From: an uncultured Anaerolineales bacterium
GTDB taxonomy: Bacteria > Chloroflexota > Anaerolineae > CG2-30-64-16
Direction of reading: 5' to 3'
DNA length: 64,000 nucleotides
Assembly: GCA_964474695.1 (NCBI GenBank)
Contig: CAYYTK010000006.1
Location: 95,526 to 159,525 of the forward strand
Part shown: positions 4,620-57,362 of the stretch, in pieces
Position numbering within the stretch: the first letter of the stretch is position 1
Layout of the letters: every line of letters begins with the position of its first letter
Notes under the pieces: generated by a model
The model's input: only the letters and a program-made list of their open reading frames with translations
Told to the model about the DNA's origin: nothing
The model's database searches: none
Program-made: the position numbers and the translations under genes

Positions 4620-4621
4620 AA

Positions 4622-7869: not shown

Positions 7870-10716
7870 ATGCGTTACGCTGAAGTTTGTGTCAATACGC
7901 CGCTGGGAACGCGGACGTCGCCTTCTGCATCGGCGGCAGCAGGCCGCGCGTCATCCACGCTGAGCGATGACCTCCCGGCCGGTGCGTTCACCTATGCTGT
8001 CCCCGAACGGCTGGCAGGCCGTTTGCAGCCCGGTCACCTGGTCTGGGCGCCTTTTCGCGGCCGCCGCCTGCAAGGTGTCGTGCTGAGTCTTTCCGATGCC
8101 GCCCCCGGTACCGCCGGGGGGTCTGCCCCGCAGTTCCTCATCCGTGAGATCATCTCGCTGGTCTGGGCGCAGCCGCTGCTGGCCCCCGCGCAACTGGCCC
8201 TGGCCTATTGGATCAGCAACACCTATCTGGCGCCGTTGATCGAGTCGCTGCGGCTGATGTTGCCGGCAGGCCTGACCCAGCGCGGCCGCACCGTGTTTGT
8301 CCGTGCGGGCGGCGTGGCGCCTGCCGGCCTCACATCCCGGCAGGCCGCGCTCTTGGCGCGCCTGGCCGCGCAGCCGGGCGATTGGTCGGAGATCAGCCAG
8401 GGGGTGCGGGGCGCCACGCAGAAGGATGACCTGGCGCCGCTGATTGAGCTGGGCCTGGTGGCCCAAGAGGTCGAGTTCCCGACCCCGCCGCCGCGCCCTA
8501 AGACTGATCGCCAGGTGCGGCTGTTGGCTGACGCGGCGACCATCGCCCGGGTTCTGCCCACCTTGGGCCATGCGCCGAAGCAGGCCCAGATTCTGGCCGT
8601 GTTGAGTGGGCCGGCAGGCGCTGGGCAGATGACGTTTGCTGCGCTGCGCGAGGCAGTTGGCTGCACGGCGGGACCTATCGAGGCTCTCGCGGCACGCGGC
8701 TGGCTCACCATCATGCCCGGCAGCGCGTCCAAAGCATCAGCAATGGTGGCGTTGGCCTTGAGCCCCGAGGCGCTAACCGATGCCATCGTTGAGCTGCGCG
8801 GCGTCCAGAAGCATCGCGCCGTGCTTGAGGCGCTGCTGACTCACGAGGGACCGGCCTGGATCGGTTGGATCTATGCCGAGACCGGCGCGACGCTGCAAAC
8901 TCTGCGCGACCTGGAAGCAGCGGGCCTGATCACGATCGCCGAGGAGATGATCTGGCGTGATCCCCTGGCCGGTCACGAGTTCAAGCTCGACCAGCCGCCT
9001 GTGCTGACGGAAGATCAGCAGGGGGTGTGGGAGCGGGTGCAGCAACGAATCAGCGAATGCGATCCGCAGGATCGTCCGAATCAGCGAATTGGTGAGAACA
9101 CGGATGCGTCATGCGTCATGCTCCTTCACGGCGTCACCGGGTCCGGGAAAACCGAGATCTACCTGCGCGCGATCGCCGAAGTTTTGGCGCGCGGCCAGCA
9201 GGCAGTCGTGCTGGTGCCCGAGATTGCGCTGACCCCTCAGACGATCCGCCGGTTTGCCGCACGTTTTCCGGGCAAGGTCACGGTGTGGCACAGCGAATTG
9301 GGCGAAGGGGAGCGCTTCGATGTATGGCGTCGGGTGCGCACCAATCATCCTGCCTCACAGATCGTCATCGGCTCCCGTTCTGCCCTCTTCCTGCCCTTTT
9401 CTGATCTGGGCGTGATCGTGTTGGACGAGGAGCATGAGACTTCGTACAAGCAGGAGCGCACGCCGCGCTACCATGCGCGCACCGTCGCCATCGAGTTGGG
9501 CCGGCTCTGCCGGGCGGTCGTCATCCTCGGCAGCGCGACGCCGGCTTTGGAGACCTACTACGCGGCCAGGCGCGGGGAAATCGAGCTGCTCACCCTGCCC
9601 CAGCGCATCCGGGCGGGCGAATGGCGGACGGGGAATGGCGAAGGCGCGGAGGCCGTGCCCCTACAGATGGCTCCGGTTGTTTCTCCTGACCTGCCCCCTG
9701 TGCGGATCGTGGACATGCGGCAAGAATTGCGCGTGGGCAATCGCAGCATGTTCAGCCGCGCCCTTTCCACGAGCCTACGGCACGTCTTGAATGCAGGCCA
9801 GCAGGCAATCCTATATCTGAACCGGCGCGGCACAGCCAGCTTTGTACTGTGTCGCGATTGCGGCCATGTGGAAGTCTGCCCGCGCTGCGCCGTTCCATTG
9901 ACACTGCACGGCGAAGGCGAGACGCTGATCTGCCACCACTGCAACCGGCGCTATCCGGCTCCGACTACCTGCCCCAACTGTGCGGGCCGGCGCATCCGCC
10001 ACTTCGGCGTTGGCACCGAGCGGGTGGAAGAGGCCGTTAAGTTGGAGTTCCCGGAGGCGCGCACTTTGCGGTGGGATCGGGATGTGACGGGCGCCAAGGG
10101 CAGCCATGACGCGATCCTTTCGAAGTTCGTGGCGCACGAGGCCGATGTACTGATCGGCACGCAGATGATCGCCAAGGGCCTGGACCTGCCGTTGGTGACC
10201 CTGGTTGGCGTGGTGGCGGCCGATACCGGCCTCTTCCTGCCCGACTTCCGTGCCGTCGAGCGCACTTTTCAGCTCCTGACTCAGGTGGCCGGCCGCGCCG
10301 GCCGGAGCACGCTCGGCGGTGAGGTAGTTGTGCAGACTTATCACCCCGACCACTACGCCATTGTCGCCGCGGGCAACCACGATTATGAAGGCTTCTATCG
10401 CCAGGAGATAGCGTTCCGTCGCGAGCAGGGTTATCCGCCCATCCGCCGCCTGGCCTCCTTGGTCTATTACCACAGCCAAAGGCCCAAGGCCCAGGCCGAG
10501 GCAGCGCGCCTGGCGCAGGAGCTGCAGGCCGCTATCGGGGGATTGGGGCTGGCAGACACCGACTTGATCGGCCCGGCCCCATGCTTCTTCGCGAAGCAGC
10601 GCAGCGAATACCGCTGGCAGATTGTGGTGCGCAGCCCGGACCCGGCCGCGTTGTTGCGCCAGGTGGCCGCGCCGCTGGGCTGGCGGCTCGATATCGACCC
10701 GACCGATCTGCTGTAG
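7870..10716 (+). CDS. priA: primosomal protein N' (replication restart helicase PriA)
   Basis: Helicase motif I LLHGVTGSGKTEIYL. Zn-binding cysteine cluster CRDCGHVEVCPRCAVPLTLH...CHHCNRRYPAPTTCPNCAG. C-terminal PriA domains. Confidence 0.9.
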   Translation: MRYAEVCVNTPLGTRTSPSASAAAGRASSTLSDDLPAGAFTYAVPERLAGRLQPGHLVWAPFRGRRLQGVVLSLSDAAPGTAGGSAPQFLIREIISLVWAQPLLAPAQLALAYWISNTYLAPLIESLRLMLPAGLTQRGRTVFVRAGGVAPAGLTSRQAALLARLAAQPGDWSEISQGVRGATQKDDLAPLIELGLVAQEVEFPTPPPRPKTDRQVRLLADAATIARVLPTLGHAPKQAQILAVLSGPAGAGQMTFAALREAVGCTAGPIEALAARGWLTIMPGSASKASAMVALALSPEALTDAIVELRGVQKHRAVLEALLTHEGPAWIGWIYAETGATLQTLRDLEAAGLITIAEEMIWRDPLAGHEFKLDQPPVLTEDQQGVWERVQQRISECDPQDRPNQRIGENTDASCVMLLHGVTGSGKTEIYLRAIAEVLARGQQAVVLVPEIALTPQTIRRFAARFPGKVTVWHSELGEGERFDVWRRVRTNHPASQIVIGSRSALFLPFSDLGVIVLDEEHETSYKQERTPRYHARTVAIELGRLCRAVVILGSATPALETYYAARRGEIELLTLPQRIRAGEWRTGNGEGAEAVPLQMAPVVSPDLPPVRIVDMRQELRVGNRSMFSRALSTSLRHVLNAGQQAILYLNRRGTASFVLCRDCGHVEVCPRCAVPLTLHGEGETLICHHCNRRYPAPTTCPNCAGRRIRHFGVGTERVEEAVKLEFPEARTLRWDRDVTGAKGSHDAILSKFVAHEADVLIGTQMIAKGLDLPLVTLVGVVAADTGLFLPDFRAVERTFQLLTQVAGRAGRSTLGGEVVVQTYHPDHYAIVAAGNHDYEGFYRQEIAFRREQGYPPIRRLASLVYYHSQRPKAQAEAARLAQELQAAIGGLGLADTDLIGPAPCFFAKQRSEYRWQIVVRSPDPAALLRQVAAPLGWRLDIDPTDLL
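9046..9092 (+). repeat. in-frame copy of the octamer/module repeat family A (GAATCAGCGAAT + GCGATCCGCAGGATCG + GAATCAGCGAAT) inside priA
   Basis: Encodes QRISECDPQDRPNQRI between a conserved segment and helicase motif I. The same units recur at 20680-20778, 22656-22695 and 23514-23562. Confidence 0.8.
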
Positions 10717-10757
10717 CTTTGGGTGCGGCGGATTGGCGCTCTCGGAACGGATGATAC

Positions 10758-11306
10758 ATGGCTCGTAATCGCTGGAACCTCTTGATCGCGTCCTTGTTGC
10801 TCGTCGGCCTGGCCTGGATCTGGGTCAACCGTGTGCCGGGCAACCAGGCTGCGGCAACCATGCCGGCGGCTGCCGCGCTGCCTCCCGCCCCGATCGTGGG
10901 CCATCCGGCGCCCGACTTCAGCCTGGAGACCCTCTTGGGCGAGGATTTGACCCTGTCCGGGTTGCGCGGGACGCCGGTGGTGTTGAATTTCTGGGCCACC
11001 TGGTGCCCGCCCTGTCGCGCCGAACTGCCGGAGCTGGCAGCAGCAAGCGCGCGCCTGGCCGGGCAGGTGGCGATCATCGGCGTGAATCAGGCGGAGGCGC
11101 GCGCCGACGTGCAAGCTTTTGCCGCTGGATTGAGTTTGCCGTTCCCGGTGCCGCTGGACGAAAGTGCCGATGTGAGCCGGACCTACCGGGTGCGCAGCCT
11201 GCCCACCACGTTCTTCATCGATCGCCAGGGCATCGTTCGTCAGGTGCAAATCGGTCCCGTCACCGAGGCAACGCTGGGGCAATTGTTGAAGACGATCTAT
11301 CCGTAA
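10758..11306 (+). CDS. TlpA/ResA-like thiol-disulfide oxidoreductase (thioredoxin fold)
   Basis: N-terminal TM anchor and an NFWATWCPPC redox motif. Confidence 0.85.
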   Translation: MARNRWNLLIASLLLVGLAWIWVNRVPGNQAAATMPAAAALPPAPIVGHPAPDFSLETLLGEDLTLSGLRGTPVVLNFWATWCPPCRAELPELAAASARLAGQVAIIGVNQAEARADVQAFAAGLSLPFPVPLDESADVSRTYRVRSLPTTFFIDRQGIVRQVQIGPVTEATLGQLLKTIYP

Positions 11307-11317
11307 CGGCATCCAAG

Positions 11318-11366
11318 CTCGGGTCACAAACCTGGTTTCTCGGAGAAACCAGGTTTGTGACCCGAG
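11318..11366. repeat. perfect 24-bp-arm palindrome (family C, core ACAAACCTGGTTTCTC)
   Basis: CTCGGGTCACAAACCTGGTTTCTC-G-GAGAAACCAGGTTTGTGACCCGAG. It ends 12 nt before the lgt ATG. Confidence 0.9.
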
Positions 11367-11377
11367 AAAGGCATTTC

Positions 11378-12121
11378 ATGCTTCCAATCATCCAGCTTGG
11401 TCCTGTCTCGCTTCCCACCTATCCGCTTGCGCTGGTGTTGGCCGCCTGGTTGGCGCTGGAAGTCAGCGCGCGGGTTGCGCGGCGGCTGGAACGGCAAGGC
11501 GCTCGCGCGATCGGGCCGGATCACGTTTACAACGCGGGTTTGTCTGCGTTGGTGGCGGGCTTTGTTGTAGCCCGCTTCGGCCATGTGATCGCCTATTGGC
11601 CCGCCTATCGTGCGCAGCCGTTGGAGATCTTCGGATTCAACACGCGGGCCTTTCTGCTCTGGCCGGGGATTGCCGGAGCGCTCCTTATGTTCGGCTGGTA
11701 TGTCTATCGGCATCGGCTGCCCCTGGCTGCCATGCTGGAGGCCTTGGCTCCGGGACTGTTAGTGGGTGTCGCGATCGCTCAGGCAGGCGCCTTCCTGGCC
11801 GGCCATAATCCCGGCGCGCCGGCCGACCTGCCCTGGGCGGTGAACTTCTGGGGTGTGGCGCGACATCCGGCTCTGCTCTACGAGGCGCTGGCCGCGCTCG
11901 CCGTGTTGTTAGTGATTGGGCTCTTGCTCCGCCGCCGCACGCCTGCCGGCATGATCGCCTGGACTGCACTGCTGGGCTATGGCCTGAGTCGTTGGCTCCT
12001 GGAGCCGTTCCGCGCCGAGAGCGCGGTGACCTTCGGCGGCTTGCGAGCGGCGCAGGTGTTGGGGTTGGCGGCGGCGTTGATCGCGCTTTGGGCGCTGCGG
12101 TCGCTGAGCAGGAAGCTGTGA
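11378..12121 (+). CDS. lgt: prolipoprotein diacylglyceryl transferase
   Basis: Polytopic membrane protein with the Lgt signature region ...RHPALLYEALAALAVL (compare E. coli RHPSQLYE). Start set at MLPIIQLGPVSL; the ORF-track upstream extension overlaps tlpA and is rejected. Confidence 0.75.
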   Translation: MLPIIQLGPVSLPTYPLALVLAAWLALEVSARVARRLERQGARAIGPDHVYNAGLSALVAGFVVARFGHVIAYWPAYRAQPLEIFGFNTRAFLLWPGIAGALLMFGWYVYRHRLPLAAMLEALAPGLLVGVAIAQAGAFLAGHNPGAPADLPWAVNFWGVARHPALLYEALAALAVLLVIGLLLRRRTPAGMIAWTALLGYGLSRWLLEPFRAESAVTFGGLRAAQVLGLAAALIALWALRSLSRKL

Positions 12122-12142
12122 GCACCGGCGAAACGCGCGGGC

Positions 12143-13537
12143 TCAGGCGGCCGGCAGGCTATCACGATATCTTTCAGGCGTGTCAATATCCTGGAGGATT
12201 TCGGGTGAGGGCCAATCCACCCAGGCGATCTCATCCGCATGGGCCTGGATGATGGGCCGCGCGCCGACGTCACCCTGGAGCCGCTCGAACTCCCTGAAAG
12301 TGGCAGCGTCGAAAAGGACGGGATTGCCGCGCTGGCCGTTCCAACGTGGGGCAACGACCGGCGCCAACGTCTCGCGATGGCGCTGGATTAGTGCCGAAAG
12401 CAGCTCAGGTGAGATCCCAGGCTGATCCGCCAGCAAAAAGAGGACGGTCTTGCATTCCCTCCCCCTCTCCTGAACCGATAGTTCAGGAGAGGGGGTCAGG
12501 GGGGTGAGGACCGTCCTGAGTCCCGCTTGCACGCTGCGGCTCTGCCCGGCCGCCCAATCGGGCGCCCGCACGATCTGCGCATTCAGGCCGGCAAGCGCCG
12601 CACACACCTGCTCCGCCCCGGCGCCTACCGTGACCACCACCCGTTCGACGTCCGGGCAGGCCAGCGCCTGTTCGGCGACGTGCGCCACCAGCTGCCGGCC
12701 GCGCCAGGGCAGCACCTGTTTCAGCGCGCCGAAACGCTTCGCCTCGCCCGCGGCCAGGACGACCGCGCCGGTCCGCCCCCAAACTTCGCGCACCGGATCG
12801 TCCGCTTGCGCCGCGCCGATCAGGACAGTATCAATCCGGTCGTGTTGCAGCAGCCGGCGGGAAATCTCGCGCGCGGCGACCAGGCTGGCTTCATCTTCGG
12901 CTTTGTTCAGGAATGGAATCAGCCGCGCGCCGGGGGGTGCGCCTTTCGCACCGCCCTCCGGGTGCGCCAACACCGCGGCAACCAGGCCGGGAGTCACGGG
13001 GTCGCCCAGGGCCGCGCCGGTCAGCGCCGCGATCCGTTCGGGGCGATGGACGTGTTCGGCGTCCAGCGGCCGCCCCAGCACATCCAGCCCCATCATCGGG
13101 ACGACGATGGTTGCGCTGGTCGGAATCACCGGTTCGTGTGCTGCGGGCGCCTTGAACGGCAGCCGCCGCGAGCCATCTGCTTCCATCAGCAAAGCATCGA
13201 CTGCAGGGTGCGCCGCGACGCGGTCCAGCAGCTCGGGCGGCACACCTTGCACCTTGTCCTGCTCCACAACGGTGCCGCCCGCGATCAGCACATGGCCGTG
13301 CTCGGCGAGCGTGCTTCCCAGTTGCGCCAGCAGTGCACCTTCCCCTTCCAGGATCAAACGCGCCGGCGCGCGGGCCATCTGCGTCACGAAGATCTTGGTG
13401 GTCATCGTCGTAACCACGCGTTGCCCCGCCGACCGCAATTCTTCGGCCAGCCGGAACATAGTCGTGGTCTTGCCGCCGCCGCCGGTGAAGGCGACGACTT
13501 CTTTGGGGCGGATACGCAAAGCAGTCACAAGCAGCAT
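12143..13537 (-). CDS. fusion protein: YqeC-like selenium-dependent molybdenum-hydroxylase accessory protein (N-terminal) + MocA/YgfJ-like molybdenum cofactor cytidylyltransferase (C-terminal)
   Basis: N-terminal VVAFTGGGGKTT P-loop typical of the YqeC family. C-terminal VVLAAGEAKRFG...K NTP-transferase domain as in MocA/YgfJ. Start chosen at MLLVTALRIRPKEVV (13537). Starting at 13660 would overlap the next gene. Confidence 0.7.
   Translation of the reverse strand: MLLVTALRIRPKEVVAFTGGGGKTTTMFRLAEELRSAGQRVVTTMTTKIFVTQMARAPARLILEGEGALLAQLGSTLAEHGHVLIAGGTVVEQDKVQGVPPELLDRVAAHPAVDALLMEADGSRRLPFKAPAAHEPVIPTSATIVVPMMGLDVLGRPLDAEHVHRPERIAALTGAALGDPVTPGLVAAVLAHPEGGAKGAPPGARLIPFLNKAEDEASLVAAREISRRLLQHDRIDTVLIGAAQADDPVREVWGRTGAVVLAAGEAKRFGALKQVLPWRGRQLVAHVAEQALACPDVERVVVTVGAGAEQVCAALAGLNAQIVRAPDWAAGQSRSVQAGLRTVLTPLTPSPELSVQERGRECKTVLFLLADQPGISPELLSALIQRHRETLAPVVAPRWNGQRGNPVLFDAATFREFERLQGDVGARPIIQAHADEIAWVDWPSPEILQDIDTPERYRDSLPAA
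12461..12495. repeat. perfect 15-bp inverted repeat (CCCCCTCTCCTGAAC-CGATA-GTTCAGGAGAGGGGG) inside the MocA-like domain coding sequence
   Basis: Read directly. On the minus strand it encodes a ...PSPELSVQERGRE... loop in frame. Confidence 0.85.
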
Positions 13538-13560
13538 GGTCTCACTCTTACCGGCGGCAA

Positions 13561-14997: not shown

Positions 14998-15028
14998 GTG
15001 ATCACGCACCACGCACCACGCACCACAC

Positions 15029-16741
15029 CTACAACCCCATCGCGCACCCGTCCGCCCGCATATCACTCCCGCCGCACAGCACACCCGTCTCCGGGTCTCG
15101 TAGGATGATCTGTCCGCGGCCGAAAAGTGCGCGCTCGTGGCCGGCCACGACATCGACAGGATGTCCCATCTCGGCCAGGGCCGTCACCGTCGCGGCCGGG
15201 ATGCCCTCTTCCAGGCTCACGCGGCCCGCGGCTGTGCCGCTGTTGATACAAAAGCGCGGTCGGTCAAGCGCTGCCTGTGGATCAAGCCGGTCGTCAGCCA
15301 GCGCCAGCACCACCTGCGCGTGGCCCTGGGGCTGCATAAAGCCGCCCATGACACCGAAGGAGGCGATAAGTAGATTGGTAGATTGGGAATTGATGGAACC
15401 GTCCACCAATCTACCATCTACCACTCCACCGTCCCGGGTGATCATCGCTGGGATGATCGTGTGGTAGGGCCGCTTGCCGGGCGCGAGCGCGTTCGGGTGC
15501 CCCGGTTCCAGGCTGAAATTGTGACCGCGGTTCTGCAGGCTGAAGCCCCAGCCGGACGGCACGATGCCGGTGCCGAATCCCATATAGTTGCTGTTGATGA
15601 AGGAGCAGGCATTGCCTTGTTCGTCCACGACGCTGAAGTAGACCGTATCGGAGCCGGCGACCGGGGCGCCGCGACGTTGGTCGAGGGTGGTGTGTGCCGG
15701 ATCGATCAGCCCTCGACGTTCGGCGGCATACTCCTTCGAGAGTAACTGGTCGATTGGTATGTCGGCAAACTGGGGATCGGCGACATACCAGCGCGTATCG
15801 GCGAAGGCCAGGCGCATCGCCTCGATCTCAAGGTGTAGTCGTTCGGGTGCCAGGGGTTCGCGGCCGGCGAGGTCGAAGCCCTCCAGGATGTTCAGCGCCA
15901 ACAGCGCGGCCAACCCCTGGCCGTTCGGCGGGCATTCCCAGATGCGCAAGCCGCGGTAGGTTGTGCTGATCGGCTCGTCCCAGGTGCTGGTGTGCGCCGC
16001 CAGATCCTCGACCGTCAGGCAGCCGCCCGCGGCCTGTACGGCGGCTGCGATCGCTTCGGCGATGCGCCCCTGGTAATAGGCGGCCTTGCCGCCCTCGGCC
16101 ACGGCGCGCAGGGTGCGGGCCAGGCCGGGATTCCGAAACACCTCGCCGGGCTTGGGCGCGCGGCCATCGATCGTCAGTTCCCGGCCGCCGGCTGCCTGGC
16201 GCAACTGCCGTTCGGCCCCGCGCGCCCAGAAGTAAGCGGTGATGGGTGCGACCGGGAAGCCCTCCTCTGCCAGGCGAATGGCCGGCGCGAGGACGCGGCT
16301 CAGCGGCAGGCGGCCGTGGCGCTCGACCAGGTCGCACCAGCCCGCGCACGCACCGGGCACGGTGATCGTGTAAGGATGGTAGGGGGGCAGTTCCACGCCG
16401 CACCCGGCGGCGCCGAATCCCTCGCGTTGCAGCCGTTCCAATGTCAGCGCGGCCGGCGCGCGGCCCGATCCGTTCAGCGCGGTGATCTTCCCGTTGGCGG
16501 CCTCCGGCGTTACCGGCGGAGCAGCCTCGTAGAACAGCGCAAAGCAGTCGCCGCCGATGCCGGTGGAGGTGGGCTCGGTCACGTTCAGGGCCGCGGCGGT
16601 CGCGACCGCGGCATCGGCCGCGTTGCCGCCTGCGGCCAGGATCTCCAGCCCGGCAGCCGCAGCTAACGGCTGCGATGCCGCCACCATGCCGCGGCGGCCG
16701 TAGACGGGCGAGCGGCGGGACGCGAAAATCAGCTCAGACAT
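15029..16741 (-). CDS. ggt: gamma-glutamyltransferase
   Basis: Typical GGT large- and small-subunit motifs. Carries an extra ~20-codon in-frame segment (VVDGRLVDGSINSQSTNL) made of family-B octamers. Confidence 0.85.
   Translation of the reverse strand: MSELIFASRRSPVYGRRGMVAASQPLAAAAGLEILAAGGNAADAAVATAAALNVTEPTSTGIGGDCFALFYEAAPPVTPEAANGKITALNGSGRAPAALTLERLQREGFGAAGCGVELPPYHPYTITVPGACAGWCDLVERHGRLPLSRVLAPAIRLAEEGFPVAPITAYFWARGAERQLRQAAGGRELTIDGRAPKPGEVFRNPGLARTLRAVAEGGKAAYYQGRIAEAIAAAVQAAGGCLTVEDLAAHTSTWDEPISTTYRGLRIWECPPNGQGLAALLALNILEGFDLAGREPLAPERLHLEIEAMRLAFADTRWYVADPQFADIPIDQLLSKEYAAERRGLIDPAHTTLDQRRGAPVAGSDTVYFSVVDEQGNACSFINSNYMGFGTGIVPSGWGFSLQNRGHNFSLEPGHPNALAPGKRPYHTIIPAMITRDGGVVDGRLVDGSINSQSTNLLIASFGVMGGFMQPQGHAQVVLALADDRLDPQAALDRPRFCINSGTAAGRVSLEEGIPAATVTALAEMGHPVDVVAGHERALFGRGQIILRDPETGVLCGGSDMRADGCAMGL
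15371..15430. repeat. family-B (TAGATTGG / CCAATCTA) composite inverted repeat lying in frame inside ggt
   Basis: TAGATTGGTAGATTGG ... CCACCAATCTACCATCTACCA. The two halves are reverse complements of each other. Confidence 0.85.
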
Positions 16742-16750
16742 GTGAAAGCC

Positions 16751-18349
16751 TTACGGTTGAGGCACGTGGTAGATGCGTACTTCATATCCGCCATCGGTGA
16801 AGACCTTGACTTCCTCAAAGGTGCTGAAGAACGTTTCGTAACGTGCGATCGCAGGCGCGAACTGGACCGGGTCGGCATAGAAACGCCGGAACATGGTCTC
16901 GCTGAATACCAGGTAGTCGTACCCCTCGGTGACGTACCACTCTGCCGGGTGATCGTTCAGCTTGTAAAAGCCCTGGACCACGAATTTCTGCGGGTCGATC
17001 CAGGGGGAATACGACTCGATGCCAATGCGCGATCCCGCTGGCAGGTTGTGCTCGATCCACTCGCGAGCCGTGTCGAGGCTATCCGGCTGCATGAGGCGCA
17101 CCGTATCGCGGACGGTCCCGACCAGGGGAAAGATCAGTGCGACGACAAGAAGGGCAGCCGCGGCGTTTAGCTGGATGCCGGTGTAGCCAGAGGCCCGGGA
17201 CGGCAGAAGGCTCACAAGCCAGTAGGCAGCCAGGACCGCGAAAAGGGGCAGAAGCGGCAGCGCCGTGCGTTCGAAGTGGACGGCGAATGCGCTGATGAAG
17301 AGCAGATAACTCAGAGATGTTATGGCAATTAAGAGCGCGCCGCGCGAACGCCGGAAAATGCCCCAAATGATCCCGGCGGCTGCCAGCAGCAGCATCGGAC
17401 CTTCGGTCCGCCAGAAAAAACTCAGGTACCATGCCAAAGAGTTTCCGGCGTTCCCGGCATGGCCTCCGGTGTAATGGCGAACGTCGATCAGAGCGCCCTT
17501 GAGGAAGGTTTGGTAATCCAGTACGGCGAATGGTGTCGTCGCCACGAAGAGAATGAGGCTGACAACCCCGGCAGCGTACAGCCGCCAATCCTTGATCCCG
17601 CGCCAGCCCGAACGAAGAAAGTGCGCCAGGACGATTGCCAGGGCGAAGACCGCGGCGTTGTACTTGGTCCCTGCGGCCAGGCCGAGCGCCGCGCCAGCCA
17701 GGATGTAGTGGCGTGTTCGTCCCTCCTGGCAGACGCGCCACGCTGCCCAGGTGACAAGGGTTGTGAAAAAGGCGAGCGGTCCATCCGGGATCAGGAACCG
17801 GCTGTTGGCGACCAGGGTTGGCGACAAAGCTGCCCACAGACCCGCCAGCACGCCGCCAAAGGTAGAATGGGTGATCCGGCGTGCGAGATCGAAAGTCAGC
17901 GCCACCGTGGCGACGCCTAACACCGCGGAAAAGCAGCGTCCGCCGAGGAACAGCATCGGTAGGGTTGTCTTGCCGGACCCGCCGATGAGCAGCACGGGCT
18001 CCGCTAGATCGGCCAGGCTGCCGAATACGCCGAACAGCCGACCGATACCGTAGTACACCAGGTAGCCGAAGGCATTGATATAGTAGTAGAGCGATGGGTA
18101 AATGAAATCGTGTGGATTCGGATCGCCCGTCTTGACCATCTTTAAGACCTGGACGACCCAGAACGGCTCATCGGGATGCTCGACGTAAGGCAGCCCGAAA
18201 TTGATCCCCCACAGCCGCAGGCCAAGCGCAACGACCAGCACGCCCGCCAGGCACCACGACGCGCAGCGTGTCATGGGGTCGAGAAACGATCGAGCGACTG
18301 GCATCGCTGAAAAACGGTATCCGGTGTAGCCCCCAGCCCGGTCTGCCAT
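16751..18349 (-). CDS. glycosyltransferase family 39 (ArnT/PMT-like) polytopic membrane protein
   Basis: Many TM segments with the GT39/PMT-like N-terminal loop region. AAGGAGAT lies 5 nt upstream of ATG 18349. Confidence 0.65.
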   Translation of the reverse strand: MADRAGGYTGYRFSAMPVARSFLDPMTRCASWCLAGVLVVALGLRLWGINFGLPYVEHPDEPFWVVQVLKMVKTGDPNPHDFIYPSLYYYINAFGYLVYYGIGRLFGVFGSLADLAEPVLLIGGSGKTTLPMLFLGGRCFSAVLGVATVALTFDLARRITHSTFGGVLAGLWAALSPTLVANSRFLIPDGPLAFFTTLVTWAAWRVCQEGRTRHYILAGAALGLAAGTKYNAAVFALAIVLAHFLRSGWRGIKDWRLYAAGVVSLILFVATTPFAVLDYQTFLKGALIDVRHYTGGHAGNAGNSLAWYLSFFWRTEGPMLLLAAAGIIWGIFRRSRGALLIAITSLSYLLFISAFAVHFERTALPLLPLFAVLAAYWLVSLLPSRASGYTGIQLNAAAALLVVALIFPLVGTVRDTVRLMQPDSLDTAREWIEHNLPAGSRIGIESYSPWIDPQKFVVQGFYKLNDHPAEWYVTEGYDYLVFSETMFRRFYADPVQFAPAIARYETFFSTFEEVKVFTDGGYEVRIYHVPQP

Positions 18350-18367
18350 ATCTCCTTCCTTACTACA

Positions 18368-18967
18368 CTACTCGCTGAGAAGGTTGACCTGCCCTGTCTC
18401 CAGCTCATAGCGCGCGCCAACGACCAGCAGCTTCTCGTCTGCGATCAACCGTGTCAGGATGGGCTGTGCCGCGCGAAGCTCTGCCACGGCCAGCTTGACA
18501 TTGGCCGTAATTGCGCCGTCGATAACGGCGTCGACACTGCTTCTTCCGGAGGTTGCCGCTTGTTCAATGGCCGGCCGGATGCGCTCGATGATGCTGCCGA
18601 TGTGCCCGGGCGCATGGCCGCCCTGGACCGCAGCGGTCACTGCACCGCAACGGCTGTGTCCCAACACCATCACAACGCTCACGCCCAGGTGCTCGGCCGC
18701 GTATTCGACGCTCCCCAGCATCGCATCATCCAGCACATTGCCGGCATCGCGGATCACAAACAGGTCGCCCAGGCCGCAGTCAAAGATGATCTCCGGCGGC
18801 ACGCGCGAGTCGGAGCAGGTGATGATCGCGGCGAACGGCTCTTGCCCGTTGATGATTTCGGTCCGGCGATCGGTCGTCTGGTGCGGACGCGTCGGGTGTC
18901 CGTCCATAAAGCGCCGATTGCCTTCTAATAAGATTCCCAGAGCTTGGGCAGGATTCAGGGTTGTCAT
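18368..18967 (-). CDS. beta-class carbonic anhydrase
   Basis: CSDSRV...HSRCGA zinc-ligand motifs (Cys, His, Cys) with typical length. Confidence 0.85.
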   Translation of the reverse strand: MTTLNPAQALGILLEGNRRFMDGHPTRPHQTTDRRTEIINGQEPFAAIITCSDSRVPPEIIFDCGLGDLFVIRDAGNVLDDAMLGSVEYAAEHLGVSVVMVLGHSRCGAVTAAVQGGHAPGHIGSIIERIRPAIEQAATSGRSSVDAVIDGAITANVKLAVAELRAAQPILTRLIADEKLLVVGARYELETGQVNLLSE

Positions 18968-18972
18968 CGCCG

Positions 18973-19572
18973 CTACCCCTTTTCGCCGATGATGAGATCA
19001 GTCAGGCGCCGCTTCGGCACATGATGGACCCCCTCGGCGTCGCGCCAGTACTTGATGTCGCCGTCCGGGCCGATCTCTTCAACGACCACTGTCTCCTTCG
19101 GCTTGCCGAGCGCCAGCACCACCAGGATTTCGTAGCGTTCGGGGATGGCCAACGCCTGGCGCAGTTGGTCGCGCTTCACCGAGCCGATGATGCAGCCGCC
19201 CAACCCGCGTTCCACTGCGCCCAGCAGGATGTTCTGCACGGCCAGGCCATGATCGACGCCGACGTAGGCCGACAGGCTCAGCGCCGTATCGGCCAGGACA
19301 ACGATATAGGCTGCCGGCCGTTCGCCCTCTTCCGGCCCGGGCCAATCCTTCAGGTAGCCGGCCCAAGCCAGCGTGGGGAAGATTTCAGCGTTGGTCTCCC
19401 GGTCGGTGCTGAGGATGTAACGCAGCGGTTGGCGGTTAGCCGCCGACGCCGACAGCCGCGCCAGGTCGACCAGCTCGCGCAGGGTCGCAATGGCGATGGG
19501 CGCGTCCTCATAGAAACGGCGATAGGTGCGATTCCGCGTCACGAGTGACGGCAACACCAGGTCTTTCAGCAT
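18973..19572 (-). CDS. nitroreductase-family protein
   Basis: Nitroreductase fold signature (RRS.R.F....I....L..L) over about 200 aa. GGAGG RBS present. Confidence 0.75.
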   Translation of the reverse strand: MLKDLVLPSLVTRNRTYRRFYEDAPIAIATLRELVDLARLSASAANRQPLRYILSTDRETNAEIFPTLAWAGYLKDWPGPEEGERPAAYIVVLADTALSLSAYVGVDHGLAVQNILLGAVERGLGGCIIGSVKRDQLRQALAIPERYEILVVLALGKPKETVVVEEIGPDGDIKYWRDAEGVHHVPKRRLTDLIIGEKG

Positions 19573-19613
19573 ATGGCGCCTCCGGAGGTAAGTTTAGGTG
19601 GGCGTTATCATAA

Positions 19614-19651
19614 CATAGCCCCGTGAGCCTTCACAAGCTCACGGGGCTATG
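19614..19651. repeat. perfect 15-bp-arm hairpin (CATAGCCCCGTGAGC-N8-GCTCACGGGGCTATG) downstream of the XDH operon
   Basis: Read directly. Lies between the XDH Mo-subunit stop (19804) and the nitroreductase start. No T-tract follows, so if it terminates transcription it is not a classical terminator. Confidence 0.8.
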
Positions 19652-19803
19652 TAGAATGCGTTTAGCGTTGGAGGCAGAACTAAACGGATCATCCTGAGCG
19701 GAACGGAGCCGCCCAGTCGTGCGGGCGGCGGAGTGCAGTCGAAGGATGCGGCTCTGCCCGATGGCCGCTGCGCACCCTTCGACTGCGCACTGCGGTGCTC
19801 CGC

Positions 19804-22161
19804 TCAGGGTGCTTGTTTACCCTGCAGCCCGCGCCACACCCGCTCGGGCGTCAGCGGGAACTCGTCGAAGCGCACCCCGGTCGCGTCATAGACCGCGGCG
19901 CAGACGGCGGCTGCCGCGGGTAGGTAGGGCATCTCCCCCATGCCGCGCGCGCCGAACGGGCCGTTGGGATCGGGCACCTCGACGATCAGTGCATCCATCT
20001 GATCCGGCACATCCAGCACGGTCGGGATCAGGTAGGTGCTGAGTTTGTCGGTGAGCACCCGTCCCTCCCGCGTCTTCCACTCCTCCTGGATCGCGTACCC
20101 CAATGCCTGCACTGCCGCGCCCTCGATCTGGCCCGTCACCTGCTGTGGATTGATGGCCTGGCCCACGTCATCGGCGCTGATGAAGCGCTCCACCTTGACT
20201 TGCCCGGTTTCGGTGTCGACGGCCACGAACGCCACCTGGGCTACGTAGCCGTACGCGAAATTGGGCTTCCCCTGGCCGGTATCGTGATCCAGCGGCGTAG
20301 TCTTGGGGGCCAGGTAGACGTATTCACCGATGGCCGGCCGCTCTTCGTTCCGCCAGGCTGCCAGCGCCTTCTCGGCGGCCCCGCGCACCGCGTTGCCGCT
20401 CATGTAGGTGAGTCGCGAAGCGGATGCACTGCCTGAGCTGCCCATCTGCGCCGTGTCGGATGCGATCACCTTCACCCGCCCAAACGGCACCTCCAGCACC
20501 TCGGCAGCCACCTGCGCGATGATGGTATGATTGCCCTGGCCGCAGTCCGCCCCGGCAAAGTAAACCACCGCCTCTGCGATCTCGCTCCCGCCGCGCGCCT
20601 CCACGCGGGCGTAACTGTTCTCCTGGTAGCCGAACGAGAAGCCGACGTTCTTGAAGCCCGCCGCAAAGCCGATGCCGCGGGCGATCTGCGGATCGCTTGC
20701 GTGTTGCGCATTGCGTGTTGCGTGATTCGCTGATTCGCTGATTCGCTGATTCGTTGATTCGCCGTTTCGCTGATTCGCAGGCCTGTGCCAATGCCGCGGC
20801 ATGCATGCCGCTTCATCCTGTGTCCATCCGGCAGCTTTCGCGGCCGTGATGATGGTCTTGGTCAAGCCAACGCCGCCGGGGATAGGTGTGCCAACAATGA
20901 GCAGGCTCTCATCGGTCAGGATGTTCCGCAGCCGGATCTCAACCGGGTCGAGGCCTAAGGCTTCGGCCAGTTTATCCATCTGGCTTTCGGCCGCGAAGTG
21001 GCCCTGGGGTCCGCCGAAGCCGCGGAACGCCGCGCCTGGCACGTGGTTGGTGTAGACGGCGTAGGTGTCCACCGCAGCATTCGGGATGTCATACGGCCCC
21101 GTGCAGGTCAGGGTGGTGTTGCCCAACACCTTGTTGCTGGTGTACATGTAGGCCCCGCCATCGGCGATGACCTTGACCTCGACGGCGGTCAGCCTGCCAT
21201 CACGCTTCGCGCCCCAGCGGGTGTAGATCTTCATGGCGTGGCGTTTGCCGTGGCCGATGATCGATTCTTCGCGGCTCCAGATCGTCTTGATCGGTCGCCT
21301 GATGCCGCGCTGCGCCAGCCGCCAGACTGCCAGCGCCAGGGTGATCTGAACCGACATGTCCTCGCGGCCGCCGAACGCACCGCCGATGGCCGGATAGATC
21401 ACGCGCACCTGTTCCTTGGGGATGCCCAGCGCGTGCGCGATCTGTCCTTGATCCTCGTGGGTCCATTGGCCCGCAACCTCGACCGTGATGCGTCCTGCGT
21501 CATCCAGATAGGCCACACCGGCCTCGGGCTGGAGGTAAGCGTGTTCTTGCACCGGGGTCTGATAGACCCCCTCGATGATGACGCCGCCTTCGTCGGCAGC
21601 CTCCCGGAAGCCCGCCTCGACATCGCCCTTGCGGATGCGATACGCATAGCACACGTTATTCGCGCTGTGCGGATGGAGTTGATAGGGCACTGGCCGCGCA
21701 GGATCGGCCGCGCTTAATCCGCCGGCCAACGACGGCGCAGCTTCCTCGGGGTCGAGCACGACCGGCAGATCCTCCCACTCGATCCGGATCAGCTTGCAGG
21801 CCGCGCGTGCCTGTGTTTCGGTCTCTGCCACCACCAGCGCCACCTGGTCCCCCACAAAGCGGGCCACGTCGGCGCCAGGCTTGTCCGAGCCGGGGCCGCA
21901 GAGCACCGGCTGGTCCTTGATCTGCAGGCCATATTCGTTCACCGGCACATCTTTGGATGTGAACACCGCCACGACGCCAGGGGCGGTTTCGGCCGCAGCC
22001 GTCTCGATGCTGAGGACGCGCGCATGCGGCCGTCCGGCGAACAGCGTCGCCATATGCAACATGTCCGGGTAGACGATATCCCCGGGGTAAAGCGTCTTCC
22101 CGGTCACCTTGCCGGGCGCATCGATGCGGACAGCATTCTTGCCTACCATGTGGTAACTCAT
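19804..22161 (-). CDS. xanthine dehydrogenase family molybdopterin-binding large subunit
   Basis: MSYHMVGKNAVRIDAPGKVTGKTLY... N-terminus with Mo-binding domains (GGAFGG, GGGFGG-like motifs). Start ATG 22161 has a GGAGG RBS and an ATGA overlap with the upstream gene. The 114-codon N-terminal extension in the ORF track is rejected. Contains a ~33-codon low-complexity in-frame insert. Confidence 0.85.
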   Translation of the reverse strand: MSYHMVGKNAVRIDAPGKVTGKTLYPGDIVYPDMLHMATLFAGRPHARVLSIETAAAETAPGVVAVFTSKDVPVNEYGLQIKDQPVLCGPGSDKPGADVARFVGDQVALVVAETETQARAACKLIRIEWEDLPVVLDPEEAAPSLAGGLSAADPARPVPYQLHPHSANNVCYAYRIRKGDVEAGFREAADEGGVIIEGVYQTPVQEHAYLQPEAGVAYLDDAGRITVEVAGQWTHEDQGQIAHALGIPKEQVRVIYPAIGGAFGGREDMSVQITLALAVWRLAQRGIRRPIKTIWSREESIIGHGKRHAMKIYTRWGAKRDGRLTAVEVKVIADGGAYMYTSNKVLGNTTLTCTGPYDIPNAAVDTYAVYTNHVPGAAFRGFGGPQGHFAAESQMDKLAEALGLDPVEIRLRNILTDESLLIVGTPIPGGVGLTKTIITAAKAAGWTQDEAACMPRHWHRPANQRNGESTNQRISESANHATRNAQHASDPQIARGIGFAAGFKNVGFSFGYQENSYARVEARGGSEIAEAVVYFAGADCGQGNHTIIAQVAAEVLEVPFGRVKVIASDTAQMGSSGSASASRLTYMSGNAVRGAAEKALAAWRNEERPAIGEYVYLAPKTTPLDHDTGQGKPNFAYGYVAQVAFVAVDTETGQVKVERFISADDVGQAINPQQVTGQIEGAAVQALGYAIQEEWKTREGRVLTDKLSTYLIPTVLDVPDQMDALIVEVPDPNGPFGARGMGEMPYLPAAAAVCAAVYDATGVRFDEFPLTPERVWRGLQGKQAP
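20680..20778. repeat. family-A repeat cassette (GGCGATCTGCGGATCG + TTGCGTGTTGCG x2 + CTGATTCG x6) in frame inside the XDH Mo-subunit gene
   Basis: Tandem octamers read directly. Encodes ...ANQRNGESTNQRISESANHATRNAQHASDPQIA... Confidence 0.9.
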
Positions 22162-23615
22162 TGGTGTGCCTCCCTTCCCACTGTCGCGCGCTCGATCGCC
22201 TCCAGGATCTTGTAGTACCCCGTGCAGCGGCACAGGTTGCCGGTGAGCGCCTGTTTGATCTGGTCGGCGGTAGGCTGCGGGTATTCTTCGAGCAGATTTG
22301 CAGCCGACATCAGGATGCCGGGGGTGCAGTAGCCGCACTGGACGGCCGCAGCGTCGATGAAAGCCTGTTGAATCGGATGGAGTTGGCCTGCTGTCGCCGC
22401 CAATCCTTCCACCGTGACAACCTCGCAACCTTCGGCCCGCTCTGCCGGCACCAGGCAGCTCATCACCGCCACGCCATCCAGCCAGACCGTGCACGCGCCG
22501 CATTCGCCCTCGGCGCAGCCTTCTTTCGTCCCAGTCAGCCCGGCATCCTCCCGCAAGGCACGTAGCAGCGTCTTCCCGTGGGTGTTGGGTAGGCTGGTAG
22601 GCTTGCCGTTCAGGATCAGAGAGATCGGCGATTGGGGGTTGGAAACTGGTAGAGCTGCATTCGCTGATTCGTTGATTCGCTGATTCGCTTTCCCCTGCAA
22701 CAACACCGGCTGCTCCGGCCAGCCCTCCCGTTCCGTGCCGTCGCGCAGTTGGCGCAAGGCACGGGCCGTGAGCACCCGCACCATGTCGCGGCGATAGTCG
22801 GCGCTGCCTCGGATGTCGGAAATGGGGCGGGCTGCGGCTGCGGTCAATTCCGCCGCGCGGTCGATGACCTCATCGGTAAGCCCCTTGTCGGCCAGGAAGG
22901 CTTCTGCCTCCCCCGCGCGTACGATGGTCGGTGCGACGGAGCCGAGAGCGATGCGGGCGCGTGATATATGGTCTTCAGCAAAGTCTACGATCACCGCGAC
23001 ATTCACGACGCTGATCGCCTGCGCCTGTCGCAGGCCGAGCTTCAGGAACGTGCCGCGCTCGGTCGGCTTGAGGGCCGGGACATTGATGCGAACGAGCATC
23101 TCGTCGGCCTGGAGCGCGGTCTTTCGGACGCCGCGGAAGAACTCGGCGCAGCTCAGGGTGCGCTCTCCCCGCGCGCTGCTGGCCAGGGTAAAGGTGGCGT
23201 CCATGGCCCACAGCGGCGCGATGGTGTCGTTGGCCGGGCTGGCGGTGATGCAGTTGCCGGCCACGGTGCCGCGGTTGCGGATTTGCGGCGCACCTACCAG
23301 CCAGCAGGCCCGTGCCAGCGGAAATGCATCGGCCACCGCATCGGGCATGCCTACCACCTGATTGTGGGTGACATTCGCGCCCAGGTGGAAGGCGCCGTTA
23401 TTGCGTTCAATGGCGTCTAGCCCGGGGATGCGTGAGACATCGATAATCGTCTCCGGTGTCCGCACCCCGCGCTCGATCTCCAGGATCAGATCGGTGCCGC
23501 CCGCAATGAGACGGGCGGTCTGCGGATCGTTTGCGTGTTGCGGGCGATCTGCGGATCGCTTAAGCAGGTCCAACGCTTCAGCGATGCTGCCCGGCGCGTA
23601 ATAGGTATGCCACAT
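22158..23615 (-). CDS. fused FAD-binding (CoxM/XdhB-like) + [2Fe-2S] (CoxS/XdhC-like) subunit of the molybdenum hydroxylase
   Basis: N-terminal FAD-binding domain (AGGTDL...). C-terminal two [2Fe-2S] cysteine clusters (CAEGECGACTV; CGYCTPG...CRCTGY). The linker and N-terminus each carry family-A repeat-encoded segments. Confidence 0.8.
   Translation of the reverse strand: MWHTYYAPGSIAEALDLLKRSADRPQHANDPQTARLIAGGTDLILEIERGVRTPETIIDVSRIPGLDAIERNNGAFHLGANVTHNQVVGMPDAVADAFPLARACWLVGAPQIRNRGTVAGNCITASPANDTIAPLWAMDATFTLASSARGERTLSCAEFFRGVRKTALQADEMLVRINVPALKPTERGTFLKLGLRQAQAISVVNVAVIVDFAEDHISRARIALGSVAPTIVRAGEAEAFLADKGLTDEVIDRAAELTAAAARPISDIRGSADYRRDMVRVLTARALRQLRDGTEREGWPEQPVLLQGKANQRINESANAALPVSNPQSPISLILNGKPTSLPNTHGKTLLRALREDAGLTGTKEGCAEGECGACTVWLDGVAVMSCLVPAERAEGCEVVTVEGLAATAGQLHPIQQAFIDAAAVQCGYCTPGILMSAANLLEEYPQPTADQIKQALTGNLCRCTGYYKILEAIERATVGREAHQ
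22656..22695. repeat. family-A octamer run (CATTCGCTGATTCGTTGATTCGCTGATTCGC) inside the FAD-[Fe-S] linker
   Basis: Encodes KANQRINESANAA in frame. Confidence 0.85.
23514..23562. repeat. family-A module (GGCGGTCTGCGGATCGTTTGCGTGTTGCG + GGCGATCTGCGGATCGCT) inside the 5' end of the FAD-[Fe-S] gene
   Basis: Near-identical to 20681-20710. Encodes SADRPQHANDPQTA in frame. Confidence 0.85.
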
Positions 23616-29243: not shown

Positions 29244-29386
29244 TGGTAGACTGGTAACTTGGTACGTTGGTAGATTGGTGCTTGGTAGATTGGTAGGTGG
29301 TGTATTAGTTGCAGGTTCTCCGAGGCCCAGTTTCCCAACCTACCAATCTACCAATTTGCCAGTTCACCAGGTTACCAATCTACCAG
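29244..29386. repeat. family-B array: GGTAGATTGG-type units (left) facing CTACCAATC-type units (right) in a composite inverted repeat
   Basis: Read directly. Intergenic between the PLP-enzyme stop and the hydrolase start. The ORF-track entry 29153..29338 merely translates it. Confidence 0.85.
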
Positions 29387-34017: not shown

Positions 34018-34052
34018 GGTAGATTGGTAGATTGGTAAGTTGGCAAATTGGG
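34018..34052. repeat. family-B units (GGTAGATTGGTAGATTGGTAAGTTGG)
   Basis: Lies between the arcC start and the four-helix-bundle gene stop. Confidence 0.85.
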
Positions 34053-34546: not shown

Positions 34547-34735
34547 GGATTTGGTAGAATGATGACGAGGTAAATTGGTAACTTGGGAGCTGATACTGGC
34601 CCCCCAATTCACCAGGCCACCAATCTACCAATTACCAATCTACCAATCTACCAATCTACCAATTACCAATCTACCAATCTACCAATTACCAATCTACCAA
34701 TTTACCAATTACCAATCTACCAATTACCAATCTAC
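34547..34735. repeat. largest family-B array: about 15 tandem CCAATCTA / CCAATTA units preceded by inverted GGTA-ATTGG units
   Basis: Read directly. Sits between the carbamoyltransferase stop (34732) and the four-helix-bundle gene start. The ORF-track entry 34583..34792 merely translates it. Confidence 0.9.
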
Positions 34736-57239: not shown

Positions 57240-57260
57240 GGGGTACCTCACGGGGAGTCG

Positions 57261-57353: not shown

Positions 57354-57362
57354 GATACTAAC

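Follow-up and report, generated by a model that had tools for sequence, protein, structure and literature searches.

Bacterial coding sequence is normally purged of tandem repeats whose unit is not a triplet, as one slipped unit destroys the reading frame. How can arrays of heptamers and octamers then stand inside priA and inside genes of an XDH-family enzyme, as they do in an uncultured Anaerolineales bacterium? The DNA analysed is a 64-kb stretch from this organism, here called the window; comparison loci are designated by L-numbers and homologous proteins by P-numbers. Our answer, which as a whole we hold with somewhat better than even confidence, is that the four repeat sites in the window are local samples of a property common to class Anaerolineae.

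The in-frame repeat modules occupy one site in priA, one in the gene for the molybdopterin (Mo) subunit and two in the gene for the FAD/Fe-S subunit. An earlier note on this DNA had spoken of four unrelated conserved genes; there are four sites in three genes, two of which encode adjacent subunits of one XDH-family enzyme. The modules are of three kinds: CGAATCAG octamers, CACGCAA heptamers and a 16-nt hairpin, GCGATC-CGCA-GATCGC. The host genes and their modules are listed here, those marked TRF having been reported by Tandem Repeats Finder.

7870..10716, + strand: priA, 948 aa (Pfam PriA_3primeBD, DEAD, Zn_ribbon_PriA, PriA_C)
9046..9092, + strand: composite in priA of CGAATCAG, CGAAT, an 18-nt hairpin segment, CGAATCAG and CGAATTGG; peptide QRISECDPQDRPNQRIG, directly before Walker A
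9059..9076, + strand: hairpin copy GCGATCCGCAGGATCGTC in priA (RNA fold -8.7 kcal/mol, z -2.1)
19804..22161, - strand: XDH-family Mo subunit, 785 aa, true start MSYHMV (Pfam Ald_Xan_dh_C, MoCoBD_1, MoCoBD_2)
20723..20778, - strand: octamer array (CGAATCAG) x7 in the Mo subunit, peptide ANQRNGESTNQRISESAN (TRF)
20697..20724, - strand: heptamer array x4 in the Mo subunit, CACGCAA on the coding strand and TTGCGTG on the + strand (TRF)
20681..20696, - strand: Mo hairpin GCGATC-CGCA-GATCGC, peptide SDPQIA, within the 31-nt repeat
22158..23615, - strand: FAD-binding and 2Fe-2S fusion subunit, 485 aa (Pfam FAD_binding_5, CO_deh_flav_C, Fer2, Fer2_2)
22654..22689, - strand: octamer array x4.4 in the FAD-to-Fe-S linker, peptide KANQRINESANA (TRF)
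23512..23560, - strand: about 1.6 tandem copies of a 29-nt unit at the FAD N-terminus, peptide KRSADRPQHANDPQTA

The octamer CGAATCAG is found 11 times in the window compared with 2.7 expected, a count reached by none of 100 shuffled sequences. Eight of the 11 copies fall into three clusters (priA 9046 and 9077 on the + strand, 20730-20777 and 22664-22687 on the - strand). With up to two mismatches allowed, GATCCGCAGATCG is found 13 times (3.6 expected), the copies at 20682 and 23545 being exact and that at 23516 having one mismatch, while CGCAACACGCAA is found three times, at 20697, 20711 and 23531 (0.6 expected; 2 of 100 shuffles reach three). The modules stand where they had first been placed, and CGAATCAG and GATCCGCAGATCG are present above expectation. 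TRF detected period 8 with 7.0 and 4.4 units and period 7 with 4.0 and 2.6 units. A second, independent repeat finder aligned the 31-nt block 20678-20708 with 23512-23542 at 94% identity, with a third, partial copy 29 nt further on, and the octamer stretch 22659-22689 with 20741-20771, also at 94% identity.

On the coding strand, the Mo insert consists of (CGAATCAG)x7, (CACGCAA)x4 and GCGATC-CGCA-GATCGC, in this order. In the last of these, six perfectly matched base pairs enclose a loop of 4 nt (-10.7 kcal/mol, z -3.2 by RNA folding against shuffles); the fold of the insert as a whole is no more stable than that of shuffled sequences (z +0.18). The hairpin and two heptamers together make up the 29-nt unit, of which the Mo loop has a single copy and the FAD N-terminus about 1.6. 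An Rfam scan of the window matched no family. The hairpin sequence (20681-20696 and 23544-23559) equals the octamer of the cyanobacterial highly iterated palindrome (HIP1), GCGATCGC, with an 8-nt insertion, and contains two GATC sites. We dropped a link to HIP1, whose 8 occurrences in the window against 5.5 expected amount to no enrichment. CGAATCAG itself includes GAATC, a GANTC site.

All copies of the modules first reported lie on the coding strand, and the claim of a constant orientation is borne out. Direct reading finds TGA in all frames of three units of the reverse orientation, CTGATTCG. The accompanying claim of a constant frame has to be given up. For the octamers it is uninformative because 8 and 3 are coprime and every frame gives the same cyclic peptide, RISESANQ. 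For the hairpin it is false: of the two copies at the FAD N-terminus, one is read CGA TCC GCA GAT CGC (RSADR) and the next GAT CCG CAG ACC GCC (DPQTA). The peptide D(R)PQ that had been assigned to the module fuses two distinct stretches of DNA.

Comparison with homologous proteins gives the sites a history. The named best protein matches are proteins from metagenome-assembled genomes (MAGs) labelled Anaerolineae or Chloroflexota, and in these the PriA, Mo and FAD/Fe-S sites differ from one orthologue to the next, with inserts of 0 to more than 70 aa that derive from a wide variety of 7/8-nt units; the repeat peptides include NQRISESA, RVSEYGSVG, PNPQSPI, GEWQMAD and IRNPKSA. Orthologues of the FAD/Fe-S subunit (alignment A1) range from 464 to 584 aa and have about six insertion hot-spots. 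Their FAD-to-Fe-S linker carries NQRISESA-type repeats of differing length in many relatives, for example QRISEWTNQRISESANRRIGESAN, and RVSEYGSVG or unrelated tracts in others; the linker repeats are absent from the more distant relatives P0074, P0080, P0082 and P0089. The N-terminal segment DRPQHANDPQT is confined, within this alignment, to the window protein, P0004 having a shorter unrelated insert at the same place. Five syntenic loci, L001-L005, were obtained via the FAD/Fe-S orthologues, and the N-terminal module is missing from all five.

The Mo loop, delimited by HWHRP and IRRGIGFAAG, differs in every genome compared, and its copy number runs from about five units in L004 through seven in the window to at least nine in L005. 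Its content in the five loci is as follows.

L001: QTHDERRTTDDE...
L002: ...HHASDPQIARNTQAIRRSPA
L003: IADGGWRIADSGSPIRNPNSA
L004: NQRIGESANGES...
L005: NQRMDESANQRSSESANQRISESANQRISESANHES

In L002 (8650-9980 and 11584-13743), the amidohydrolase gene is split into two ORFs, and the Mo subunit lacks both of its ends and diverges at the C-terminus; this looks like frameshift errors or pseudogenisation. In a more distant orthologue, the Mo site is a non-repetitive stretch of about 45 aa. The segment preceding GVTGSGKT in PriA varies in the same manner, from nil in P0198 and P0199 to more than 70 aa in P0143 (ESASQRISESANQRVGESTNGEWQMADGEWQMA...IRNPKSAIRNPQSA).

Sequence alignments with orthologues, a paralogue and proteins of known structure were used to argue where these sites lie in the folded proteins, as the inserts could not be mapped on the AlphaFold2 model built from alignment A1 for the FAD/Fe-S protein, its mean pLDDT of 55.7 being too low. 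Homology with the solved E. coli PriA picks up again at TDASCVMLL. Nicotinate dehydrogenase (3HRD) has a natural chain split at the Mo site, which also falls between aligned blocks of 4-hydroxybenzoyl-CoA reductase. The window itself contains an internal control, a second XDH-family operon (38932-42675, - strand) with separate Mo, Fe-S and FAD subunits and no repeat inserts, where the Mo-domain loop is 29 aa shorter. The structure, paralogue and orthologue alignments show the sites to be permissive loops or linkers. The earlier note had proposed such positions, shorter or empty in more distant homologues, and the absence of the segment in P0198, the shorter paralogue loop and the 3HRD split agree with it. 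Its expectation of lineage-specific segments is borne out at the FAD N-terminus, and fails for the PriA, Mo and linker tracts, which are widely shared. Judged from these alignments, the octamer tracts of the FAD-to-Fe-S linker, of PriA and of the Mo loop are evidently old and class-wide and not recent arrivals in this genome.

The breadth of this distribution emerged from a scan of CGAATCAGCGAATCAG against one genome per species, which returned at least 119 loci. Among the matches listed, to which the following counts refer, 67 loci are from Chloroflexota, all of Anaerolineae type where they are labelled below the phylum (Anaerolineales, Thermoflexales, Caldilineaceae and others), and single MAGs supply up to five contigs each. 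Arrays of at least four units make up 53 of 71 in Chloroflexota, with a maximum of 39 units, compared with 9 of 52 elsewhere, mostly in Burkholderiales. By a rough caller based on open reading frames (ORFs) and GC content at third codon positions (GC3), 30 of the 71 Chloroflexota arrays (about 42%) are genic, 29 in sense and one in antisense orientation, whereas the 41 intergenic or gene-edge arrays exhibit no orientation bias relative to their neighbours. This is the pattern expected if genic survivors have been filtered by stop codons, and the explanation of strict orientation by stop codons in the reverse strand holds well. If coding density there is about 90%, as estimated for the window, genic arrays are depleted roughly ten-fold.

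Beyond the hosts in the window, some 15 further host genes in other MAGs were identified by Pfam, among them AnmK-SIS, PurD, PKS, GlnA, GT2, MutS, CobQ, HypF and RACo, often with the array at a domain boundary. A TRF census of periods 7 and 8 gave 19.6 arrays per 100 kb in the window and the orthology-fetched loci of six relatives and 30.2 in the Chloroflexota scan loci, against 6.1 in other phyla (about 3 without the seeded CGAATCAG-type arrays), and these two periods were commoner than any other. Among the TRF units of the window, L001-L005 and L125, 18 of 35 contain AATC or GATT compared with 4.3% expected, which points to a shared origin of the units or to a generating process that prefers certain sequences. 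Another tandem array lies within 80 nt of 26 of 55 CGAATCAG arrays; composite blocks are the rule among arrays. The notion of a single composite element that spread recently in this genome does not survive these comparisons, as octamer arrays are common to many orthologues and CGAATCAG is one of dozens of 7/8-nt units spread through Anaerolineae MAGs, where its intergenic positions outnumber the genic ones. A protein-database search with (NQRISESA)n, subject to composition filtering and a large database, returned only seven short matches. Outside Chloroflexota, CGAATCAG arrays of 5-7 units occur in the Burkholderiales loci L021, L042, L073 and L092, and P0241, a 60-aa hypothetical protein of E. 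coli, is a translated CGAATCAG array; convergence and a shared property of the unit are both conceivable here.

The hairpin has a different history from the octamers. A contig of a close relative, L125, aligns with window positions 4104-11888 at 94.7% identity over 7.8 kb, and only four indels separate the two: two single-base indels between genes, one of 9 nt in priA and a 15-nt gain of the window in the priA array. In L125, this array reads CGAATCAG CGAATCAG CGAATCAG CGAATTGA, with three clean octamers, and in the window CGAATCAG CGAAT-GCGATCCGCAGGATCGTC-CGAATCAG CGAATTGG, a net difference of +15 nt; around the arrays, the two are otherwise equal base for base. Three clean octamers on one side and a hairpin on the other argue that the module entered an existing array after the split, and the alignment dates its joining of the priA array, in all likelihood, to the time since the two lineages diverged. 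Exact copies of the module were found in only one of 125 comparison loci, L002, while the window has two, and the hairpin family looks young and restricted in lineage. The earlier note had recognised the near-identical blocks (31 nt, 94%) and argued from them for recent spread, which the comparison with L125 supports for the hairpin and the class-wide distribution contradicts for the octamers.

Other copies bear on how the module was multiplied. In the Mo loop of L002, the 29-nt unit stands twice in tandem, read ASDPQIARNTQ and then AIRRSPATR, a frame argument that calls for caution given the apparent frameshifts or pseudogenisation of that locus. The 15-nt core GATCCGCAGATCGCC forms an in-frame tandem of 2.8 units (PQIAD) in a methyltransferase of L002, and in L003 the pair (GATTGCG)n+(AATCCGA)n is present in both the FAD and the Mo gene. 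The orthologues read GCGCAACACGGCGA at the FAD N-terminal site, similar to CGCAACACGCAAGCGA of the module, and this likeness hints that the module may have been copied, anchored by homology, from the Mo site 2.8 kb away. Copies of the hairpin are truncated at different points and joined to different neighbours, and all those in the window are intragenic. Neither terminal inverted repeats nor target-site duplications are visible at the priA gain or the FAD N-terminal gain, and the boundaries of the copies vary by site. A metagenome scan for the 18-nt hairpin AGCGATCCGCAGATCGCC returned at least 120 loci, and among those listed no locus has another copy of the module or an octamer close by; the lone adjacent heptamer-like match (in L232) looks like chance, and these matches are chance occurrences in GC-rich DNA.

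The remaining arrays of the window lie both within and between genes.

9104..9121, + strand: heptamer ATGCGTC x2.6 in priA, peptide DASCVM (TRF)
~9613..9645, + strand: second priA site, degenerate GGCGAAT heptamers, peptide GEWRTGNGEG in a variable loop (TRF; variable block in alignment A3)
15029..16741, - strand: gamma-glutamyltranspeptidase (GGT) gene (Pfam G_glu_transpept, E 6e-143)
15368..15430, - strand: in-frame inverted pair of the ACCAATCT family in GGT (GGTAGATGGTAGATTGGT ... CCAATCTACCAATCTAC), peptide GVVDGRLVDGSINSQSTNL (RNA fold -32.1 kcal/mol, z -5.4)
29244..29385: between genes, TGGTAGAT and ATCTACCA arrays as an inverted pair, from the family that also makes up the GGT insert (RNA fold of 29240-29389 -65.1 kcal/mol, z -6.4)
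34018..34051: array related to 34570..34741, just upstream of the likely start of a carbamate-kinase-like gene
34570..34741: intergenic ACCAATCT/ACCAATT array of about 15 units (TRF)
36852..36882: intergenic array with unit CTTTGTGT
49822..49887: intergenic array of the TCTACCAG family (TRF)
57252..57366: intergenic inverted arrays (GGTAAATT/TGGTAGA and CTACCAAT) (TRF)

The arrays at 9104-9121, about 9613-9645 and 15368-15430 are all in frame and had been overlooked when the locus was first read. The GGT palindrome, made of the intergenic-type ACCAATCT family and absent from the original observation, is the case found here that most resembles a Rickettsia palindromic element (RPE). Its tract measures 20 aa in the window and 65 aa at the same site in L005 (16708-16903), where (AGATGGTAGATTGGT)x7 is followed in frame by (TCCCAATCTACCAAT)x5. 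The ACCAATCT/TGGTAGAT family accounts for most of the 7/8-nt arrays in many intergenic spacers of a purine/pyrimidine-catabolism gene cluster, and the stable inverted intergenic pairs may act as intercistronic terminators or stabilisers. Between 12143 and 36759, the genes encode YqeC, a MobA-like NTP transferase, XDH-family subunits, an amidohydrolase, a dihydropyrimidine-dehydrogenase-like protein, PALP enzymes, a carbamate-kinase-like protein and OTCases, a content that resembles the selenium-dependent molybdenum hydroxylase cluster of purine catabolism. In L005, two genes of the syntenic cluster are separated by very long arrays, (TTGGGAGA)x26 and (TACCAGCC)x17 (3362-3838). The gene of a 4Fe-4S (NuoI-like) protein contains, towards the C-terminus of its product, a stretch of 66 nt (RTPEEIERLKAEAAARRAA...) that comes back 147 nt downstream with 94% identity (63788-64000); the window ends within the second copy.

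A literature search found no description of these repeats for Anaerolineae or Chloroflexi, and simple sequence repeats (SSRs) of 6-9 nt have, according to reviews, been little studied in bacteria (PMC4692102). The defining traits of SSRs and of variable number tandem repeats (VNTRs) are present, namely short head-to-tail units whose copy number varies at orthologous loci. Contingency-locus SSRs and intragenic VNTRs (PMC3315296, PMC4692102) likewise consist of slippage-prone short units differing in copy number among relatives; unlike these, the present arrays have essential or housekeeping hosts and not surface or restriction-modification genes, and the same units are dispersed over genomes and over the class. 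We rejected phase variation, given that the hosts are PriA, XDH-family enzymes, GGT, PurD and MutS and that the mid-protein tracts are in frame in all relatives examined.

In their working, the closest systems are the short tandemly repeated repetitive (STRR) sequences and small dispersed repeats (SDRs) of cyanobacteria and the repeats of Geobacter, and not the RPEs. In cyanobacteria, Elhai and coworkers (2008, Genome Res 18:1484; cited in PMC5861425) reportedly described heptamer arrays of the STRR type in which very small mobile elements, the SDRs (21-27 nt), are nested. In that system, arrays of the 7-nt class are dispersed in tandem form with several families side by side, a tiny hairpin is nested in arrays and polymorphic between close relatives, and no transposase is encoded; the same applies to the Anaerolineae arrays, to the priA array in the window compared with L125 and to the window elements, respectively. 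The present arrays differ in belonging to another phylum (Chloroflexota), in having octamers as common as heptamers and a hairpin of 15-18 nt instead of 21-27 nt, and in the large share that is translated inside housekeeping genes. The units in the window also differ in sequence from STRR1-3. In Geobacter metallireducens, tandem hepta- and octanucleotide families of four to five units occupy tens of sites inside and between genes, some as opposite-strand pairs (PMC2700814). These resemble the Anaerolineae arrays in unit length and number of sites; their fixed four to five units were read as regulator binding sites or RNA elements (PMC2700814), whereas copy number in Anaerolineae ranges from 2 to 39 and differs among orthologues, and the unit sequences are unrelated.

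The RPEs had been put forward as the model for this locus. They are single-copy palindromic elements of about 100-150 bp, similar to miniature inverted-repeat transposable elements, that lie in frame in unrelated genes (PMC10969869). The likeness extends to in-frame insertion into unrelated metabolic and housekeeping genes, to positions compatible with the fold and to the addition of a family-specific peptide, and the inserts of GGT, L003 and L005 are true in-frame palindromes. It does not extend to size or to the palindromic character of the octamers and heptamers (z +0.18). Tandem units of 7/8 nt and a 15-29-nt module, variable in copy number and mostly intergenic, are unlike RPEs, palindromic structure is limited in the window to the 16-nt hairpin (z -2 to -3) and the GGT insert (z -5.4), and the transposition hallmarks of terminal inverted repeats and target-site duplications are not seen at the gains. 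Repetitive extragenic palindromic sequences (REPs) are, by their definition, found outside genes, do not consist of tandem 7/8-mers and require a gene for a REP-associated tyrosine transposase (RAYT). Short hairpins, inverted pairs in the intercistronic spacers of operons and high-copy dispersal recall REPs and the composite elements built from them (BIMEs, REPINs); we rejected membership in this class, as all hairpin copies in the window are intragenic. The arrays are unusual in scale, yet they are a variant of known repeat behaviour and constitute no new class.

Class-wide arrays, their variation among orthologues, the duplication of blocks within a genome, one dated gain and a selection-like distribution are the observations from which an explanation has to start. 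We consider it rather probable that 7/8-nt arrays arise throughout the class by slippage, are copied between loci, are filtered by selection and are translated as variable loops. Replication slippage would let arrays grow, shrink and switch unit type, and template switching or ectopic gene conversion on short homology would copy arrays or blocks to new places. Purifying selection would be the cause of the survivor pattern, removing copies that break genes and leaving in genes those that are in sense orientation, free of stops, of a net length divisible by three and located in surface loops and interdomain linkers; changes of 7+8 = 15 nt or 3x8 = 24 nt would preserve the frame. The surviving tracts would be translated as hydrophilic low-complexity peptides such as NQRISESA. 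A tract could persist at its site through speciation with a fast turnover of length and content, giving rise to hypervariable loops, and the young mini-hairpin of 15-16 nt may have been copied recently into repeat tracts or look-alikes at priA, the Mo loop and the FAD N-terminus. It is most likely that the inserts are near-neutral passengers and not functional domains, because the peptide sequence is unconserved, the DNA is read in different frames, and the paralogue in the window and the distant relatives compared for the FAD/Fe-S subunit and PriA manage without them.

Several points weigh against this explanation. Slippage and template switching are inferred and not observed. The same octamer occurs at many unlinked loci of very divergent genomes, which passive processes explain poorly and with which a dedicated mobilising activity, or selection on sequence, is compatible. 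In priA the hairpin is embedded directly among octamers, while in the Mo loop it is set off from them by four heptamers, so that a simple conversion from the Mo site does not account for the priA copy. The check for a transposase or RAYT covers a 64-kb window of the source genome, the coding and intergenic classes of the scanned loci come from a crude gene caller, and unit counts across L001-L005 are not independent, as these loci share hosts.

The recurrence of one octamer in such divergent genomes would be better accounted for if a dedicated enzyme encoded elsewhere (a RAYT/Y1 transposase or a process mediated by RNA or reverse transcriptase) mobilised at least the hairpin or the 29-nt unit, and perhaps entire arrays, as non-autonomous elements in the manner of REPINs or of Nostoc SDRs in heptamer arrays. 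The presence or absence of the hairpin between genomes that are 94.7% identical, its fold, near-identical copies at unlinked positions of single genomes and the dispersal of one unit over many contigs of single MAGs all fit this explanation, and the restriction of the family to the window and L002 among 125 loci suggests a young burst. We nevertheless think it rather unlikely. Pfam annotation of the called genes of the 64-kb window yielded no transposase, reverse transcriptase or RAYT, the copies have no target-site duplication or conserved termini and vary in truncation and neighbours, the 18-mer scan of metagenomes gave chance matches only, and the units of 15, 29 and 8 nt also occur as simple tandem duplications that slippage can explain. 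That the arrays are errors of assembly or binning is hardly credible: the window and nearly all comparison sequences are indeed MAG contigs, and L002 has a split amidohydrolase and a truncated Mo subunit as signs of frameshifts, but in-frame tracts recur at the same sites in many independent assemblies and projects, chromosome-level records included, reading frames stay open across them, and L125 agrees with the window around the arrays except for the 15-nt gain.

It is also conceivable that the repeats are kept for a function, either as flexible hydrophilic linkers that tune enzyme assembly or as DNA or RNA sites (protein-binding sites, intercistronic terminators or mRNA stabilisers) with genic copies as by-products. 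The tracts do stay at the same protein sites over long divergence, intergenic inverted pairs fold very stably (z -6.4), arrays occupy many spacers of the operon cluster, and the units are strongly non-random, with an AATC core. This possibility is nonetheless quite improbable in view of the lack of conservation of peptide sequence, unit type and length among orthologues, the apparently intact relatives P0074 and P0198 without FAD/Fe-S or PriA inserts, the insert-free XDH paralogue in the window, the translation of the same DNA in different frames and the CGAATCAG-plus-heptamer tract, which has no structure beyond chance (z +0.18).

We tentatively regard it as possible that Anaerolineae have an active, sequence-specific process that seeds or amplifies 7/8-nt arrays and mini-hairpins at perhaps hundreds of sites per genome or more. 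If this were true, an unrecognised mobilising enzyme or templated repeat synthesis would be a candidate cause for which essential genes are also targets, about 1 in 14 genes (the figure for the window) would have translated, rapidly evolving repeat linkers, and non-triplet microsatellites would continuously reshape the loops of bacterial housekeeping proteins.

Non-triplet arrays inside PriA, MutS, PurD, GlnA and XDH-family enzymes across a class, at about 20 arrays per 100 kb overall, set a scale for these questions, and the hairpin gain offers a handle on the spread of very small repeats. If confirmed genome-wide, the arrays would caution annotators that such segments are repeat-derived, and they would account for much of the length heterogeneity and of the low-complexity inserts in Anaerolineae protein families. 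They would extend the STRR/SDR phenomenon beyond cyanobacteria and open the movement of tiny elements to comparison. They would also provide natural maps of insertion-tolerant loops in conserved enzymes and a gauge of the repeat load that housekeeping proteins can bear before selection halts it.

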